A stretch of DNA of 4,166 nucleotides. Source: a virus (taxonomy: Duplodnaviria; Heunggongvirae; Uroviricota; Caudoviricetes). Made by a program: the position numbers and the translations under genes. Location: IMG/VR virus record IMGVR_UViG_2645727555_000033. One strand, written 5' to 3'. The notes beneath the pieces are model-generated. The model ran no database searches, was not told the origin of the DNA, and saw nothing but the letters and a program-made list of their open reading frames with translations. This document shows, in pieces, positions 1 to 4,166 of the stretch (its first letter is position 1; every line of letters starts with the position of its first letter).

Positions 1-1230
1 ATGAGCAGAGCACTTAACAAACTGAGCGATACACAGCTGAGGAAAATCAACGGCACACCCGCCCAAAAAACAGCCTTTCTTAATGACGGTGGAAACCTGA
101 GCGTCAGGCATTCAACCAGTGGCCTTTTAACCTGGTATTTCACTTACAGGGCCGGAACGGGAAGGGGGGCACCACCGGAACGCATTAAGCTGGGAAATTA
201 TCCTGATCTGAGCCTGAAATCAGCCAGGGAAAAAGCCGCCCAGTGTCGCGCATGGCTGGCAGAGGGGAAAAATCCACGTCATGAGATGAATTACACCGTA
301 CAGGAAGCGTTAAAGCCCGTAACGGTTGGTGATGCGCTCACCTACTGGCTTGAGTCGTACGCAAAGGAAAACCGTGTGGATTATGACCCACTGAAAAAGC
401 GGCTAAATAATCACGTAATACAGCACATTGGCCCTATGCCGCTGGATAAATGCGAGCTACGGCACTGGCTGGCCTGTTTTGATCGGGTGGCAAAGCAAGC
501 CCCTGTTTCCGCCGGGTTCCTGCTACAGACATGCAAGCAGGCGCTTAAGTTCTGCCGGAAGCGGCGCTATGCAATCAGCAACGTTCTTGATGATATGAGT
601 GTGGCGGACGTTGGGAAAAAACCGGATATAAGCGAGCGTGTCTTAAGCAACAAAGAACTTGGCGAATTATTGCAGGCACTGGACAAAAAAATATTCTCCC
701 CCTACTACATCGCGCTAATCCGCCTCCTGATTGTGTTCGGATGCCGGACGGTCGAACTTAGGTTATCGGAGATCGGCGAGTGGGATTTTACCGAAATGCT
801 CTGGACTGTTCCGAAGGAGCACAGCAAAACGAAGGTAGCCATATTCCGGCCCATACCGGAAGCAATACTGCCGTTCGTCACGCAGCTGGTGGAGCAGAAC
901 AGGCACACGGGCTTATTGCTGGGGGAAGTGAAACAGGAAACAAGCGTGTCGCAGTACGGCAGATTAGCGCACAGGAGGCTAAATCACCCTCACTGGTCAC
1001 TACATGACATCCGGCGCACCTTTACAACGATGCTGAACGATTTAGGCGTGGATCCTCACGTCGTGGAGCAGCTTACAGGCCACCAGATGCCAGGAATGCA
1101 GCGAGTTTATAATCATTCCCGTTATCTGGATGCTAAACGCAATGCGCTGGATATGTGGATGGAGCGGTTAGGGATACTGGCGGGAACACATGAAAACGTA
1201 ACCGCACTACCAGTAGCCAGAAGAAAATAA
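1..1230 (+). CDS. int: Site-specific tyrosine recombinase / integrase, P4-like family (409 aa)
   Basis: ORF 1-1230 starts with ATG at position 1 and ends with TAA. The N-terminus (LNDGGNLSVRHSTSGLLTWYFTYR...IKLGNYPDLSLKSAREKA) resembles the arm-DNA-binding domain of P4-type integrases. The C-terminus carries the catalytic signature of tyrosine recombinases: box I Arg (FGCRTVELR), box II H-x-x-R (HDIRRTF) and the terminal nucleophile tyrosine region (VYNHSRYLDAKRNALDMW). The internal small ORFs on both strands are overlapped by this gene and treated as spurious. Confidence 0.9.
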   Translation: MSRALNKLSDTQLRKINGTPAQKTAFLNDGGNLSVRHSTSGLLTWYFTYRAGTGRGAPPERIKLGNYPDLSLKSAREKAAQCRAWLAEGKNPRHEMNYTVQEALKPVTVGDALTYWLESYAKENRVDYDPLKKRLNNHVIQHIGPMPLDKCELRHWLACFDRVAKQAPVSAGFLLQTCKQALKFCRKRRYAISNVLDDMSVADVGKKPDISERVLSNKELGELLQALDKKIFSPYYIALIRLLIVFGCRTVELRLSEIGEWDFTEMLWTVPKEHSKTKVAIFRPIPEAILPFVTQLVEQNRHTGLLLGEVKQETSVSQYGRLAHRRLNHPHWSLHDIRRTFTTMLNDLGVDPHVVEQLTGHQMPGMQRVYNHSRYLDAKRNALDMWMERLGILAGTHENVTALPVARRK

Positions 1231-1247
1231 TTTTTTTCGTGTTTTTT

Positions 1248-1271
1248 CAGTATGCGCATACTGGATATGCG
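1248..1271. repeat. Perfect 16-bp palindrome CAGTATGCGCATACTG plus a third TATGCG half-site
   Basis: Read directly: cagtatgcgcatactg at 1248-1263, preceded by T-runs (1231-1237 and 1242-1247) and followed by a further TATGCG at 1266-1271. No U-run follows the palindrome on either strand, so it looks like a protein-binding site rather than an intrinsic terminator. Confidence 0.5.
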
Positions 1272-1285
1272 AACAGATACAACGT

Positions 1286-1325
1286 GCAACAATGAGCAAC
1301 AATGTGGAACAACTACGAACAAGAG
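1286..1325. repeat. Four tandem degenerate 10-bp repeats (GCAACAATGA / GCAACAATGT / GGAACAACTA / CGAACAAGAG)
   Basis: Read directly: head-to-tail decamers at 1286-1295, 1296-1305, 1306-1315 and 1316-1325 with a conserved core (G/C)(C/G)AACAA. The 10-bp period matches one helical turn, which suggests iteron-like or regulator-binding sites. Confidence 0.5.
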
Positions 1326-1514
1326 GCGAAAAAGCGTACGGATTTATAAGTGGCTGATTTCTAATGTGTTACTGGTTTTTTATACACTAGCGAATCACTC
1401 TTTAAAGAGCGAGAAAAAAGGCATGGAACAATATTTTATGCCTTTGTATTAACATGAATTTAAAAGATTTTATTCTTACTGTTTCATTTTCTGTAAATCA
1501 TACATCCTCAGTAT

Positions 1515-1543
1515 TTGCCATTCATCACTCTAGCGGGAACAAT
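1515..1543 (+). promoter_or_regulatory. Candidate sigma70 promoter for alpA
   Basis: TTGCCA (1515-1520), a 17-bp spacer, then AACAAT (1538-1543). The predicted start is about 45 nt upstream of the alpA GTG. This is a pattern match only; other promoters in the AT-rich 1440-1590 region are possible. Confidence 0.25.
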
Positions 1544-1594
1544 ACGACACAATAAGACACCTGATGACTCTTTAAGAAACGAAAGGGGGCAATA

Positions 1595-1783
1595 GTGTTA
1601 AGCACTGATCGGTTTATACGTGAAAAAGAATGCAAAAAACTAACCGGCCTTAGCCGTACGTGTCGCTACCGCCTGGAAAAGGCCGGACAATTCCCATCAC
1701 GTCGTAAACTTGGCGGTCGTTCCGTTGGCTGGTCTTTATCCGAGGTTCTGGCCTGGAAGGATAGCTGCAAGGCAGTTCATTAA
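1595..1783 (+). CDS. alpA: AlpA/Vis-family phage transcriptional regulator (wHTH, excisionase-like), 62 aa
   Basis: GTG start at 1595 preceded by a strong Shine-Dalgarno AAGGGGG (1583-1589). The protein MLSTDRFIREKECKKLTGLSRTCRYRLEKAGQFPSRRKLGGRSVGWSLSEVLAWKD has the AlpA pattern (TGLSRSTIYRL..G.FP....LG.RSVGW...EV..W). Its position directly downstream of a P4-type integrase is typical. Confidence 0.8.
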   Translation: MLSTDRFIREKECKKLTGLSRTCRYRLEKAGQFPSRRKLGGRSVGWSLSEVLAWKDSCKAVH

Positions 1784-1789
1784 TCACGC

Positions 1790-1808
1790 TGGCGGCACAC
1801 AGCCGCCA
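1790..1808. repeat. Perfect palindrome TGGCGGC-acaca-GCCGCCA just after the alpA stop
   Basis: Read directly: 7-bp arms with a 5-nt spacer. It is not followed by a U-run on either strand, so it is more likely a binding site or stabilising hairpin than a terminator. Confidence 0.45.
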
Positions 1809-1931
1809 CACATCAATCATCTGAACACAGAGCTATAACCATGAAGATTGAATATACGCCAGAACGTGGGCGGGGATTCGTTCGCCCTGGTGAAACTGAA
1901 AAACAACAAAATTGGGGTTTTTCAGGCATAA

Positions 1932-2000
1932 CAAAAAGCGCCCAGTTACCTGAGCGCCTTTGTGAACGATTAACCTGCTGCACAAAAAATAAATATGAGC
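1932..2000 (-). ncRNA. Candidate small RNA of about 65-70 nt (extended -10 promoter plus intrinsic terminator)
   Basis: On the minus strand there is a perfect extended -10 element TGATATAAT (plus coordinates 2015-2007) with no good -35 box. About 45 nt downstream of the predicted start sits a GC-rich hairpin GCGCTCAG-GUAA-CUGGGCGC (plus 1957-1938, 7 of 8 stem pairs, GNRA-type loop), followed immediately by UUUUU (plus 1937-1933). No ORF with a ribosome-binding site lies between promoter and terminator. Confidence 0.3.
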
Positions 2001-2053
2001 ATTGGAATTATATCAACTGTGTGAAGAAGCGCCACAATTGCCGGATTACAGGC

Positions 2054-2080
2054 AAAAAAATGCGACCTATGATGGTCGCA
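2054..2080 (-). terminator. Rho-independent terminator of the minus-strand cassette
   Basis: On the minus strand: stem TGCGACC, loop AUCAUA, stem GGUCGCA (plus 2080-2061), followed by UUUUUUU (plus 2060-2054). It lies about 75 nt downstream of the stop of the 61-aa ORF. Confidence 0.6.
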
Positions 2081-2156
2081 AAAATATGATATACATGTTG
2101 ATTACACTATGCATCGACAACGATGCCACATTTTTGGCTGGTTGGCAAATCTGTCA

Positions 2157-2342
2157 TCAGGGCGGACAACAACGCCACGATCTCATCTTTCTTGGGCAAT
2201 TTTTAAGAAAATCCTCAAGGGCAAATCTTTTTGGCCTTGCTTCCTGTTCATGGTCAGGCATTTCATCCATTTCTCTTAATTTTTTTTCTACCTGTCTTTC
2301 AAGTATGGATAATGCGATTTCCCGTAATTCTTCGTTGTTCAT
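2157..2342 (-). CDS. Hypothetical small protein (61 aa), highly charged with a Cys-rich C-terminus
   Basis: ATG at 2342 is preceded by a strong Shine-Dalgarno (ACAGGAGTAGACA-ATG) and an in-frame stop just upstream. Protein: MNNEELREIALSILERQVEKKLREMDEMPDHEQEARPKRFALEDFLKNCPRKMRSWRCCPP. A terminator follows downstream. I do not recognise a family. Confidence 0.5.
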   Translation of the reverse strand: MNNEELREIALSILERQVEKKLREMDEMPDHEQEARPKRFALEDFLKNCPRKMRSWRCCPP

Positions 2343-2363
2343 TGTCTACTCCTGTAAAGAAAT

Positions 2364-2390
2364 GCGCCGTAGTTCCTCACACCACGGCGC
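2364..2390 (-). promoter_or_regulatory. Intercistronic hairpin between the 34-aa and 61-aa ORFs (possible attenuator)
   Basis: GCGCCGT, a 13-nt loop, then ACGGCGC (2364-2370 and 2384-2390). On the minus strand it is followed by AUUUCUUUAC and then the Shine-Dalgarno of the 61-aa ORF. It sits about 10 nt after the stop of the upstream 34-aa ORF. Confidence 0.3.
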
Positions 2391-2399
2391 TGATAGTTT

Positions 2400-2504
2400 T
2401 TATCCTTTGGGTTCTATGCCGCGTTGCTGTAATTCTTTGCGGATTATTCGCTTTATCCAGGCAGCAAGAGAATCATCGCCGTCCTGTTGTTGTGCCTTTT
2501 CCAT
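2400..2504 (-). CDS. Hypothetical 34-aa ORF (leader-peptide-like or small protein)
   Basis: Translated by hand from the minus strand: ATG at 2504 to TAA at 2402-2400, giving MEKAQQQDGDDSLAAWIKRIIRKELQQRGIEPKG. It is below the size cutoff of the supplied ORF track. The Shine-Dalgarno is weak (GGGAAAAG). Its position immediately upstream of a hairpin and the 61-aa ORF is the main support. Confidence 0.3.
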   Translation of the reverse strand: MEKAQQQDGDDSLAAWIKRIIRKELQQRGIEPKG

Positions 2505-2572
2505 CTTTTCCCGTAAGTCAGGATCTAAACGGAACTGGAACGGAGGATTACCACGCCTTTCGTTTTTGTGTG

Positions 2573-2628
2573 TTGACACGTTAATTACACCTCATGTAAT
2601 GTATTTATGTGTAATGACACATTACACA
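2573..2628 (+). promoter_or_regulatory. Promoter/operator region: consensus -35 TTGACA with four TGTAAT/ATTACA half-sites
   Basis: TTGACA at 2573-2578; a possible -10 TAATGT at 2597-2602 (18-bp spacer). Half-sites: ATTACA 2584-2589, TGTAAT 2595-2600, TGTAAT 2610-2615, ATTACA 2621-2626. The last two lie inside a perfect 9-bp inverted repeat TGTGTAATG-aca-CATTACACA (2608-2628). The operators overlap the spacer, -10 and predicted start, a classic repressor-controlled layout between divergent transcription units. Confidence 0.45.
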
Positions 2629-2646
2629 CAATCAACACAAAAAGCA

Positions 2647-2679
2647 AAGCCCCGCACTGTAGGAGCAGTAACGGGGCTT
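2647..2679. other. Hairpin presenting a Shine-Dalgarno copy (UAGGAG) in its apical loop
   Basis: 8-bp stem AAGCCCCG/CGGGGCTT (2647-2654 and 2672-2679) plus an inner 4-bp stem ACTG/CAGT, with loop TAGGAG (2660-2665). The heptamer TAGGAGC (2660-2666) is repeated exactly as the real ribosome-binding site of the first operon gene (2698-2704). On the minus strand the hairpin is followed by a U-rich run (CUUUGCUUUUUGUG), so it could also act as a minus-strand terminator. Confidence 0.4.
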
Positions 2680-2708
2680 CTAACCAACAACGTAAACTAG
2701 GAGCCGTT

Positions 2709-2903
2709 ATGGTTGCCGTAAATCATATACCACACCTTGTACACACACAAACGGCCTTTGTGTGGCGTTTTCTGGCACTGAGTGCCGGAGAATCTCAAAT
2801 CATCCACGTAACCGCCTGGAGGGAACGCGAAGCGCGTAGCCGTTGCCCGTCCGGTTGTGTTGCTGTATTCGCCGCCCGTATTCGTCAGGGGGTAGGCTTA
2901 TGA
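2709..2903 (+). CDS. Hypothetical small protein (64 aa), first gene of the plus-strand operon
   Basis: ATG at 2709 with Shine-Dalgarno TAGGAG five nt upstream. Its TGA stop overlaps the next start (ATGA at 2900-2903). Codon usage looks enterobacterial. Protein: MVAVNHIPHLVHTQTAFVWRFLALSAGESQIIHVTAWREREARSRCPSGCVAVFAARIRQGVGL. The longer track ORF from 2607 has no ribosome-binding site and is rejected. Confidence 0.45.
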   Translation: MVAVNHIPHLVHTQTAFVWRFLALSAGESQIIHVTAWREREARSRCPSGCVAVFAARIRQGVGL

Positions 2904-3133
2904 GTCAGGAAATCACACTACAACAGGCAGCAGAACGCGCCCACCAAATCGAAGTTATTTGCGCACTGGCAGAGGATTACCCTGGCATGATGACCGACAG
3001 CGAATCAGGGGCAATCATCGGCTTACTTAAACGCCTTAGCGGTGAGGTCTGCGTATTCCTGAGCGATGAACAGGAAAGAAGAACGCTTATTTCTAACGAA
3101 AAAAAATGCGGAGGGGTACACCATGTGCAATAA
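2900..3133 (+). CDS. Hypothetical small protein (77 aa)
   Basis: ATG at 2900 with a G-rich Shine-Dalgarno (GGGGGTAGG), coupled to the upstream stop by ATGA overlap. Protein: MSQEITLQQAAERAHQIEVICALAEDYPGMMTDSESGAIIGLLKRLSGEVCVFLSDEQERRTLISNEKKCGGVHHVQ. Confidence 0.6.
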   Translation: MSQEITLQQAAERAHQIEVICALAEDYPGMMTDSESGAIIGLLKRLSGEVCVFLSDEQERRTLISNEKKCGGVHHVQ

Positions 3134-3350
3134 AACCACACCGGACGCAGCCGCCGCCGCACTCACTACGCTGATGCACGCGCTTATTGATATTGAATGC
3201 ACGGCAGAGCTTGCACAAAAGGAAGAACGGGAGGAATACACATTGTTCGCCCTGGAATGTATCCGATACACCGCCACGCGGTCGCTGAATGACGCTAAAA
3301 ATATTCTTGTTGCTGATTGTGAAAATGGGGAGGGGGGGGGTTATGCGTGA
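3123..3350 (+). CDS. Hypothetical small protein (75 aa); its 3' end carries a G9 tract
   Basis: ATG at 3123 preceded by GGAGGGG, overlapping the end of the previous gene by 11 nt. Protein: MCNKTTPDAAAAALTTLMHALIDIECTAELAQKEEREEYTLFALECIRYTATRSLNDAKNILVADCENGEGGGYA. The last codons run through GGGG-A-GGGGGGGGG (3327-3340). Confidence 0.5.
   Translation: MCNKTTPDAAAAALTTLMHALIDIECTAELAQKEEREEYTLFALECIRYTATRSLNDAKNILVADCENGEGGGYA
3332..3340 (+). repeat. G9 homopolymer tract at the junction of the third and fourth operon genes
   Basis: Read directly: nine consecutive G at 3332-3340, preceded by GGGGA. The tract encodes the C-terminal Gly residues of the upstream ORF and also serves as the ribosome-binding site of the downstream ORF, whose ATG is at 3343 in the +1 frame. 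Confidence 0.9.
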
Positions 3351-3564
3351 TGATCGTTTTAATTCCCTGAAACAAGAATTTTCCGGCGTTCCTGATGATG
3401 CGGCTGATGCGCTTTCGTCAATATCTGAAATTATGCGGGTGGCTTTTTTCTTTCTTTTCACTGATGAGCACAGAGGTACAGGGCTAAATATTCTTGATAT
3501 TGCCGCTAACTATGCTGATTTCGTGACAGAAGCTGTTTTAAGAAAAACAACGGACGGGGATTAA
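3343..3564 (+). CDS. Hypothetical small protein (73 aa)
   Basis: ATG at 3343 immediately after the G-rich tract, overlapping the upstream stop by 8 nt. Protein: MRDDRFNSLKQEFSGVPDDAADALSSISEIMRVAFFFLFTDEHRGTGLNILDIAANYADFVTEAVLRKTTDGD. It may instead be the C-terminal half of a single fused gene (see findings). Confidence 0.5.
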   Translation: MRDDRFNSLKQEFSGVPDDAADALSSISEIMRVAFFFLFTDEHRGTGLNILDIAANYADFVTEAVLRKTTDGD

Positions 3565-3565
3565 T

Positions 3566-3799
3566 ATGCGTGATATTTATCTTGAAACAATAGACCGCGC
3601 ATTTCTTGCACTTTCTCACAGTGAAAATATGTTGGAAATATTTCGCATATGGCTTGAAACACGTGGCGACAATGAACGCGACAAACAAAAATCAAGAATT
3701 GCCACGGCATTAATAACGATTCTTGAGCCTGTAATAATGGAACTGCAAGAAATAGATCTATTGCACGACAGATATAAAGAACAGCACACCGGAGAATAA
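3566..3799 (+). CDS. Hypothetical small protein (77 aa)
   Basis: ATG at 3566, two nt after the upstream TAA, with ribosome-binding site GGGGA. Protein: MRDIYLETIDRAFLALSHSENMLEIFRIWLETRGDNERDKQKSRIATALITILEPVIMELQEIDLLHDRYKEQHTGE. It shares the start context ATGCGTGAT (MRD) with the previous gene. Confidence 0.6.
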   Translation: MRDIYLETIDRAFLALSHSENMLEIFRIWLETRGDNERDKQKSRIATALITILEPVIMELQEIDLLHDRYKEQHTGE

Positions 3800-3804
3800 A
3801 AATA

Positions 3805-4104
3805 ATGAAACTTAAATATCCTGGCTTAACTGCCAGTGGCAAAACTCGCACTAAATTCATGCGCGGGGATATTTACCGCGATAAGTACGGCGGCACGGTA
3901 ATGATTAAGGGCGTGGAGGAACGGCGCGTAACTTACCGCCGTGAAGGCTACGAATATGATTGCGTGATGCCTGTTTATCAGTTCGAACGTGATTTTACGC
4001 TGGTGCAGGCAGCGCAACGAAGCAAGCCCACCAGCAGGGAGAAAGCACGCACCAATATTCAGAAGATGAAAAACATGATTAACGGATTCAGGGGCAAGAA
4101 ATGA
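3805..4104 (+). CDS. Hypothetical small basic protein (99 aa)
   Basis: ATG at 3805 with Shine-Dalgarno GGAGAA; its stop overlaps the next start (ATGA at 4101-4104). Protein: MKLKYPGLTASGKTRTKFMRGDIYRDKYGGTVMIKGVEERRVTYRREGYEYDCVMPVYQFERDFTLVQAAQRSKPTSREKARTNIQKMKNMINGFRGKK. It may belong to a prophage-associated family of unknown function, but I cannot confirm that without a search. Confidence 0.6.
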   Translation: MKLKYPGLTASGKTRTKFMRGDIYRDKYGGTVMIKGVEERRVTYRREGYEYDCVMPVYQFERDFTLVQAAQRSKPTSREKARTNIQKMKNMINGFRGKK

Positions 4105-4166
4105 AAAGCGCACCGAACTTAAAAAAACAGCCTTACGACAAGATGACCGAAGTCATTATTTTTGCG
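4101..4166 (+). CDS. 5' fragment of a further operon gene (continues beyond the window)
   Basis: ATG at 4101 coupled to the upstream stop; translation MKSAPNLKKQPYDKMTEVIIFA reaches the window end without a stop. Confidence 0.4.
   Translation, partial: MKSAPNLKKQPYDKMTEVIIFA

Follow-up and report, generated by a model that had tools for sequence, protein, structure and literature searches.

Escherichia coli O157:H7 carries at O-island 51 (OI-51; CP-933C, genes z1835-z1843) the element EcCIEDL933, which has been defined as a capsid-forming phage-inducible chromosomal island (PICI) and for which alpA is needed for induction (10.1101/2022.09.08.507074). Induction, replication and transfer that depend on a helper phage and on alpA have been published for EcCIEDL933 and EcCICFT073 only. 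One of its genes, rgdR (ECs1581), encodes an activator of LEE1 (an operon in the locus of enterocyte effacement) and of type III secretion, which also represses motility and binds DNA non-specifically (PMC3378721, PMC10877973); according to one paper, every E. coli PICI analysed encodes RgdR (PMC6092414). A comparable early region is the left (alpha) operon of satellite P4 (PLE, seqA, CI RNA, kil/eta, epsilon, orf151, cnr, alpha), which leads from immunity to replication and in which Kil is a truncated Eta made from the region downstream of CI RNA; matches to C4 and isrK in Gram-negative PICIs, and the eta/kil logic, have been reported earlier (PMC10111431). The subject of the present analysis is a 4,166-nucleotide (nt) stretch of DNA from the IMG/VR virus record IMGVR_UViG_2645727555_000033 (the window), in which a tightly packed chain of plus-strand open reading frames (ORFs), O1 to O7, occupies positions 2709-4166. 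This chain is very probably the promoter-proximal part of a PICI early operon, read as one coupled mRNA from about position 2607 down to the replication gene rep, and gene content and synteny place the island almost certainly in the capsid-forming EcCIEDL933/OI-51 family.

The assignment to this family follows from near-identical relatives. The closest, L165, is an island in assembly GCA_050143165.1 that was located by exact look-up of O6; it is 99.93% identical to window positions 1-2891 and 99.85% identical to positions 2873-4166. Its genes run in the order roxA, int, alpA, two minus-strand small ORFs, O1 to O6, an AAA_25 helicase, SSB and PerC, followed by a head and packaging part (capsid, protease, portal, head closure, connector, HNH, TerS and TerL). 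In the window, int (1-1230, Arm-DNA-bind_3 and Phage_integrase) lies at the left end in the same orientation as alpA (1595-1783, PF05930 at 5.7e-17), which is downstream of it; the capsid, protease, portal, connector, HNH and terminase genes are outside its 4166 nt and are present in L165 and in a further relative, L001. Related DNA was found by megablast in 1527 of 5426 complete E. coli genomes. In strain FORC_042 the matching DNA forms the left end of an island that sits between roxA and phoQ and has int, alpA, small ORFs, a RepA helicase, SSB, PerC, major capsid and prohead protease genes, and then the packaging genes (portal, head closure, connector, HNH, small and large terminase), and O157:H7 strain TB21-1 has the OI-51 version at the same roxA-phoQ site. 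EcCIEDL933/OI-51 shares that site and the order int, alpA, a leftward pair that includes a ribbon-helix-helix (RHH) gene, an icd-like gene, small ORFs, rgdR, a RepA-type helicase, SSB, PerC, and head and packaging genes, with identities to the window of 91% for O1, 92% for O5 and 80% for RgdR. The two differ in their cassettes, since the window has O2 and a split O3/O4 where OI-51 of O157 has F9 (phrog_340) and a fused O3-O4; in the RHH allele, and presumably also in operator specificity; and at RgdR residue 10, which is A10 in the window, as in CFT073 C1493, unlike O157. The operon is a real, mosaic form of the already known PICI early operon, and not the undescribed system that the initial annotation had surmised from the sequence of the window.

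The ORF names denote successive plus-strand ORFs between 2709 and 4166, as taken from a six-frame ORF list and the sequence. The proposed transcription unit comprises the following features.

2573-2600, plus strand: candidate operon promoter, with a -35 element TTGACA at 2573-2578, a 16-nt spacer and a -10 element TGTAAT at 2595-2600 (11 of 12 consensus matches).
2709-2903, plus strand: O1, 64 amino acids (aa), the first operon gene, Icd-like.
2900-3133, plus strand: O2, 77 aa, orphan, an optional cassette.
3123-3350, plus strand: O3, 75 aa, orphan.
3343-3564, plus strand: O4, 73 aa, orphan; its Shine-Dalgarno sequence is the G-tract at 3325-3339.
3566-3799, plus strand: O5, 77 aa, orphan, a predicted helical hairpin.
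3805-4104, plus strand: O6, 99 aa, RgdR homologue with DUF4222 and an RGD motif at residues 20-22.
4101-4166, plus strand: O7, start of the rep/helicase gene, 22 codons, open at the window end.

From O1 to O7 the junctions measure, in order, -4, -11, -8, +1, +5 and -4 nt. The arrangement described in the initial annotation was thereby reproduced in every detail, with ATGA overlaps at 2900 and 4101, overlaps of 11 nt at 3123 and of 8 nt at 3343, and single gaps of 1 and 5 nt, and the G-rich Shine-Dalgarno-like stretch claimed for each start was found 5-12 nt upstream of all of them. The view that these ORFs form one translationally coupled operon in a satellite, adjoining int and alpA, is borne out by the relatives: the same-strand chain recurs in 103 distinct examples drawn from IMG/VR and genome loci, in which 377 of 528 junctions overlap and another 129 have gaps of 0-10 nt. 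In the proposed frames the ratio of nonsynonymous to synonymous polymorphism (pN/pS) is 0.42-0.68, beneath the values of about 0.9-1.4 in four other frames; the phase-matched antisense frame gives 0.50-0.68 because its wobble positions are shared with the coding frame. The ORF chain is more than chance.

The count of seven small ORFs had to be corrected to six, since L001 and L165 have the same 22 codons at the beginning of a gene annotated as "helicase RepA family protein", which marks O7 as the beginning of a replication initiator/helicase gene downstream of the small-ORF block. In relatives the full rep gene encodes 466 aa with an AAA_25 domain (PF13481 at 2.4e-43; phrog_2850). The statement that none of the products shows an assignable motif holds for O2-O5 and fails for O1 (NF033153, 1.4e-16) and O6 (DUF4222, PF13973, 5e-25, an RgdR homologue), and placement in known housekeeping families of the element, named in advance as the outcome that would speak against a new system, was obtained for O7, in part for O1 and O6, and for none of O2-O5. 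O6 scores 87.2 bits against PF13973 (5.1e-25; cut-off 27) and is 79.8% identical to the DUF4222 protein of OI-51 (O157 TB21-1, L162), which is taken as RgdR; by this likeness it is a homologue of RgdR, a variant of an experimentally studied regulator. It retains RGD at 20-22 and K35 (FMRGDIY...MIKGVEE), residues that are important for RgdR activity (PMC3378721). A closely related variant from ED1a is inactive, so regulator activity should not be assumed for O6. Invariant in the operon (103 of 103 related examples), it yielded 2 loci only in a genome-contig scan.

O1 belongs, by its match to the NCBIfam model NF033153 (60.3 bits; cut-off 25), to the Icd-like proteins. It also matches phrog_29966 and phrog_1743. 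Two PHROG families that it hits carry the label "transcriptional repressor", probably a legacy of P4: the 65-aa ORF just 3' of the CI RNA of P4, itself a match to NF033153 at 1.6e-21, sits inside the coding sequence listed in the old P4 record as "cI, 137 aa, transcriptional repressor". Searches with O1 and O6 by tblastn of a phage collection gave a single weak match each, and these families are therefore regarded as satellite-borne and not carried by deposited phages. In relatives, the C4 antisense RNA, its c4-a1b1 targets and isrK lie between O1 and a second icd-like copy at Rfam gathering thresholds, and Rfam detects C4 and isrK in P4 too. C4 is present in L165 and 21 other loci; in L133, L145 and also L165, the second icd copy has a Shine-Dalgarno region complementary to the hypervariable loop of C4. 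The window has no C4 (RF01695), isrK or c4-a1b1, two chance-level matches being all that an Rfam search with E up to 1 returned, and no C4 match by nhmmer. By comparison with L165, the window has undergone a 438-nt deletion and lacks the c4-a1b1 targets, C4 itself and the greater part of a second icd copy. The deletion ends fall within a 19-nt repeat, GCCCGTATTCGTCAGGGGG, which both icd genes have at their 3' ends (window 2873-2891); the deletion joins the two copies, and O1 is therefore chimeric, with its last codons derived from the second copy.

In the order of immunity region, icd-like gene, small ORFs and replication gene, the operon agrees with the left operon of P4, which is likewise a satellite early operon in which an Icd-like ORF is translated first and small ORFs precede the primase/helicase gene. 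Homologues of the P4 C4/CI RNA and of isrK/seqA occur in relatives of the window, whereas the window itself is without C4 or isrK; it encodes a 466-aa AAA_25 helicase in place of the 777-aa alpha primase-helicase, and has a divergent RHH gene that P4 does not have. No similarity to the P4 operon was found beyond O1 when O2-O6 were compared with epsilon, orf151 and cnr. The immI operon of P1 (c4, icd, ant) likewise begins with an Icd-family leader ORF that overlaps the next gene and passes control at the ribosome-binding site downstream, and the C4 loop of L165 recalls it in its complementarity to the icd Shine-Dalgarno region. The window is unlike immI in having no c4 gene, no a/b repeats and no Ant-like antirepressor, and its operon ends in a replication gene. 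Within the 5' part of O1, a terminator-like hairpin is present at 2744-2764 (CACACAAA/TTTGTGTG followed by GCGTTTTCTG). A role for it as an attenuator was considered and set aside, as the hairpin does not vary within one O1 clade and is missing from others, which leaves no evidence of covariation.

Between the invariant O1 and the invariant O6-rep of the 103 related operons lies a slot of exchangeable cassettes. O5 is present in 95 of these operons; the remainder of the slot is filled variously by O2, O3, O4, a fused O3-O4, an O2-O3 fusion, and further families that include F7 (phrog_3672), F9 (phrog_340), F10 (phrog_15327) and F11. Each of O2-O5 falls in a PHROG family of unknown function: O2 in phrog_1478 (3e-28), O3 in phrog_5146 and the N-terminal half of phrog_2512, and O4 in phrog_24341 (2.8e-41) and the C-terminal half of phrog_2512. 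Their pN/pS values are 0.42 (O2), 0.68 (O3) and 0.46 (O4). O2 was assigned in 35 of the 103 operons and is replaced by other cassettes elsewhere, the in-frame O3-O4 fusion (phrog_2512) occurs in 19, and natural O4'-O5 fusions and truncated forms exist as well. Whether O3 and O4 are split or fused is set by a 7-nt difference in the length of the G-tract at 3325-3339, GGGGAGGGGGGGGG; FORC_042 has the fused form, of 154 aa. A run of 9 G within this tract could vary by slippage. Against Pfam, NCBIfam and PADLOC nothing above noise was obtained for O2-O5, and a sequence search of the PDB gave nothing significant for O1, O2, O5, O6 or the RHH protein. The 75 listed relatives of O4, and the 120 relatives of O5 listed among 517, are unnamed or "hypothetical", and those that bear an organism label come almost entirely from E. 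coli or Shigella; an exhaustive HMMER search with O5 found 10 cluster representatives among 1.84 billion proteins. The best of five structural models of O5, a helical hairpin, reaches a predicted local distance difference test score (pLDDT) of 88 and the others 62-74, and its fold matches are generic only (designed hairpins, EsxA/EsxB). Paralogy among O2-O5, which their alike two-helix patterns had prompted, was rejected on BLASTP and on all-against-all hhalign probabilities below 5%, the sole exception being a mosaic segment shared by O3 and F9. O2-O5 are thus orphan helical-hairpin proteins, found almost only in satellites of Escherichia and Shigella and housed in a mosaic cassette slot, and they are the only four products for which the searches point to no known function, O1, O6 and O7 falling in recognised families. 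The literature on c1488-c1492 of EcCICFT073 and on the small RNAs of OI-51 gave no function for the small ORFs. A promoter-like site inside O5 (3710-3738: TTAATA, 17 nt, AATAAT, with a TG before it) stands about 60 nt upstream of rgdR; it is kept in the main O5 clade only and could explain RgdR expression in uninduced cells.

Upstream of the chain, and in part antisense to it, lies a compact control region with the following features.

2157-2342, minus strand: 61-aa ORF, 3' of the RHH gene, with a terminator-like site on the same strand after it (2080-2061).
2400-2579, minus strand: RHH protein gene (Arc/CopG/YlcI-like), 59 aa, divergent, candidate operon repressor.
2595-2631, both strands: operator-like repeats, TGTAATG as direct repeats at 2595-2601 and 2611-2617 and inverted at 2620-2626, with the palindrome TTATGTGTAATG/CATTACACACAA.
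2633-2718, minus strand: conserved structured RNA element, with a hairpin at 2646-2680 and a U-rich tail at 2645-2636.
2722-2750, minus strand: candidate leftward promoter, TTGTGT at 2750-2745, 17 nt, TATGAT at 2727-2722, within O1 codons 5-14.

The RNA element is antisense to the start codon, Shine-Dalgarno sequence and leader of O1 and lies upstream of the RHH gene, and several lines of evidence assign it to the minus strand. In 33 of 35 variants folding is much better on the minus strand than on the plus strand, the other two being ties. The minus strand forms a hairpin whose stem of 13-19 base pairs contains 1-6 G·U pairs and is followed by the U-rich tail; the plus strand has A·C mismatches instead. 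In an alignment of 22 variants, RNAalifold predicted 13 pairs, 7 of them with compensatory changes; 97.5% of the cells pair when the alignment is read as the minus strand, a value that none of 500 shuffles reached, and 84.2% if it is read as the plus strand. A covariance model gave 36 matches, all on the minus strand, with 87.8 bits for the window; in 33 of 36 sequences (the exceptions being P4, L003 and L049) it placed a single hairpin ahead of the first icd-like gene. Three loci (L004, L069 and L133, at 2329-2415 on the minus strand) have an additional, weaker copy directly ahead of an RHH gene, and this second copy suggests a duplicated switch module. The islands of these three loci have a different integrase, and alpA was not detected in them. 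The apical stem and loop are hypervariable among relatives, and no Rfam family matched positions 2633-2718. The loop, CACTGTAGGAGC, matches the b2 site of the C4 type of another island and not that of L165, and the C4 loop of L145-type islands is complementary to it; that the leader hairpin is a target of the island's own C4 RNA was therefore considered and rejected, as L165 keeps the hairpin, yet its C4 loop has a different specificity. The leftward site is the only promoter-like sequence on the minus strand between 2765 and 2576, with 8 of 12 matches and a weak -35 element. Its -10-like motif accompanies all 68 icd-like genes that are preceded by the hairpin and none of the 16 preceded by C4, the clades not being independent. 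Judged from its position, an RNA transcribed leftward from this site would be antisense to the O1 start and able to read through into the RHH gene.

The RHH protein matches the Arc-like repressor family phrog_228 at 2.1e-6 and, under the cut-off, NF041551 (YlcI/YnfO) at 5e-4; its gene starts with GTG, with GAGG 10 nt before, and a minus-strand gene is called here in L165. Homologues of the RHH protein and of the 61-aa ORF are encoded in OI-51 of O157, where PGAP has left them unannotated and called a long plus-strand ORF or pseudogene instead. The TGTAATG repeats overlap the -10 element of the rightward promoter. In relatives, strong sigma-70-like promoters occupy the equivalent place with different repeats, such as GTGGCTGACAC three times or a GTACGTACGTAAC inverted repeat, which suggests different repressor specificities. 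From this arrangement we infer that the divergent RHH protein binds the operator-like repeats and acts as the operon repressor. The long plus-strand ORF, 2002-2700 in the window (232 aa), was examined as an Eta-like gene and rejected, having no family matches and a frame that is broken in the window and L165. It spans the promoter and the hairpin and runs antisense to the RHH gene, in the phase whose wobble positions coincide with those of that gene. Some relatives keep it open, at 286 or 314 aa, in frame with O1, recalling eta/kil of P4; the FORC_042 annotation lists it as a 286-aa protein and that of O157 as an Icd-like pseudogene. It is probably spurious. A search for AlpA-type sites common to the alpA upstream region and the operon promoter returned one 10-nt inverted match only. 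Terminator-like hairpins on both strands at 1931-1985 and 2061-2126, between the alpA-orf82 unit and the convergent RHH-orf61 unit, make transcription of the operon by read-through from the alpA promoter unlikely.

The operon most likely works as follows. One mRNA, begun near 2607 by the promoter at 2573-2600, would encode O1, O2-O5, rgdR and the rep helicase in order; the overlapping stops and starts tie the translation of each gene to that of the previous one, and control at the promoter or at the ribosome-binding site of O1 would therefore reach rep. The P4 left operon and P1 immI follow the same logic. After the loss of C4 and the second icd copy, control would be left to the RHH protein at the -10 repeats and probably to the leftward antisense RNA, with AlpA, the published requirement for induction of related PICIs, acting additionally. 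In a bolder and less likely extension of this model, the leftward RNA, of about 78 nt, would start near 2715 inside O1, end at the hairpin 2646-2680 and block O1 translation and, via coupling, that of the whole chain to the rep helicase; read-through past the hairpin would provide the leader of the divergent RHH repressor mRNA. The hairpin element would serve as an alternative to C4 RNA, icd-like genes being preceded by one or the other, and co-resident satellites would differ in immunity type according to its variable loop. In the main model, upon induction by a helper phage, O1 would give a cell-division block or killing in the manner of Icd or Kil, O2-O5 would most likely act as small adaptors that bind host or helper proteins at the position held by epsilon and orf151 in P4, RgdR would be made together with Rep as a small basic protein that binds nucleic acid or RNA polymerase, and the operon would deliver the replication initiator last. 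For RgdR, the O6 model (core residues 21-70 near pLDDT 88) has five strands in an SH3/Tudor-like barrel and, after it, a basic helix at 77-96; fold-search matches include the PcrA Tudor domain, CarD, Spt5 KOW domains and CdnL, and viral models gave only uncharacterised or DUF1653 proteins. These matches suggest that RgdR may contact RNA polymerase in the manner of CarD; in the bolder reading it would be a miniature CarD-like factor whose Tudor-like barrel sits on the beta lobe. Taken jointly, a switch of leftward RNA and RHH protein that is an alternative to C4, a mini-CarD RgdR, and O2-O5 as effectors against helper or host make up a reading that can be offered only tentatively.

Several observations weigh against these proposals. 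The promoter at 2573, plausible from its consensus matches as the initial annotation had it, is absent from the list of a consensus scan because position 2 of its -10 element is G and there is no A at -11. The island type rests on near-identical relatives because the window stops 66 nt into rep, and the O4-O6-rep block occurs also in classical PICIs with other integrases: the same RgdR allele and O4-O5-rep block are found in islands with a Terminase_2 gene (L163, L164 and L166), which implies that the block is shared by recombination among satellite types. The likeness of O2-O6 to epsilon, orf151 and cnr is positional only, and the Tudor-like match of RgdR involves a small-barrel fold that is very common, in a model with a mean pLDDT of 72.5. 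Finally, the frequent fusions and truncations of O2-O5, together with pN/pS values moderately below 1, point to relaxed constraint. A plastic slot in which tight coupling is kept fits accessory effector genes and also weak protein constraint.

Among other explanations for the cassettes, the one that survives best, although it is rather unlikely, is that O2-O5 and RgdR are replication accessories of the satellite, which affect copy number, helicase loading or origin remodelling in the manner of Cnr. The genes lie directly upstream of the helicase gene and are coupled to it, O6-rep is invariant in all 103 operons with an ATGA junction in 97, P4 cnr (DUF5375) holds the equivalent position, the exact RgdR allele accompanies the same rep gene across island types, and RgdR binds DNA non-specifically in vitro (PMC3378721). 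However, no similarity to Cnr or to known loaders was found, many relatives with the same rep do without O2-O4, and LEE1 activation and motility repression, the phenotypes published for RgdR, were seen in the absence of satellite replication. That O2-O5, alone or with O1 and O6, constitute a stand-alone phage-interference, defence or anti-defence system, among the functions raised in the initial annotation, is improbable. Satellites do carry interference and defence genes, and at least 8 small-ORF families replace one another in the cassette hotspot between O1 and O6, a pattern of arms-race loci; the families are orphans restricted to satellites of Escherichia and Shigella. Against this, none of the ten window proteins matched any PADLOC family at E up to 0.1, the products are helical hairpins of 73-77 aa with no enzymatic or sensor domain, the genes lie inside a replication operon and are translationally coupled to it, O2-O5 are outside the accessory hotspots described for PICIs and P4, and expression upon induction only, if the operon is repressed, fits constitutive defence poorly; the sequences thus give no evidence of a defence or anti-defence function for O1-O6. 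It is equally doubtful that O2-O5 have little function as proteins and that their translation relays ribosomes to rgdR-rep and shields the mRNA from Rho termination, as P4 eta translation prevents termination (PMC10111431): the frequent O2-O3, O3-O4 and O4'-O5 fusions, truncations and swaps with tight junctions kept, the moderate constraint and the very narrow taxonomic range would agree with a relay, but pN/pS is clearly below that of the out-of-phase frames, each cassette family keeps a conserved core (for example the O4 N-terminus and the invariant columns of O5), and most islands keep four or five cassettes where a shorter relay would suffice, as O1-F10-O6 operons exist.

The control proposed here, by a leftward RNA and an RHH protein, has counterparts in plasmids and phages. 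Plasmid copy number is controlled in pMV158 by CopG and RNAII, and in R1 by CopB and CopA with the leader peptide tap coupled to repA. The proposed logic is alike in its RHH repressor, its structured countertranscript over the ribosome-binding site of a leader and its coupling to rep. There is no sequence relationship to these systems, the countertranscript of the island is predicted, six ORFs and not one precede rep, and the leftward RNA would double as the leader of the RHH mRNA. In coliphages 186 and P2, the lytic and lysogenic promoters lie face to face. The predicted promoters at 2573-2600 and 2750-2722 likewise face each other, about 110 nt apart, with the repressor gene beyond the rightward promoter; by contrast with 186 and P2, the repressor is of RHH type and not a CI/C-type helix-turn-helix protein, a terminator-like hairpin lies in the overlap, and both promoters are predictions.

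The operon is thus largely explained as the early region of a well-known E. coli satellite family, and there is no case for a new defence system. What it offers are four orphan proteins, with alternative cassettes, in a defined slot with exchangeable contents, within an element mobilised from species to species. To our knowledge, no repressor has been established for Gram-negative PICIs, and the RHH gene, the operator repeats and the strand-specific hairpin provide a testable model of island silencing and of differences in immunity type. The Tudor-like prediction for RgdR offers a mechanism, binding to RNA polymerase, for its global effects on the locus of enterocyte effacement and on motility in enterohaemorrhagic E. 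coli. The newest elements that can be defended are the RHH switch together with its strand-specific RNA hairpin, and the Tudor-like fold predicted for RgdR.

Two minor observations concern the region to the left of the control region. One of the terminator-like hairpins near the alpA-orf82 unit lies inside orf82 (1841-2089), and some doubt therefore attaches to this ORF. Between int and alpA, at 1288-1327, are four tandem repeats of about 10 base pairs (CAACAATGAG, CAACAATGTG, GAACAACTAC and GAACAAGAGG), which may be arm-type integrase sites or AlpA sites.

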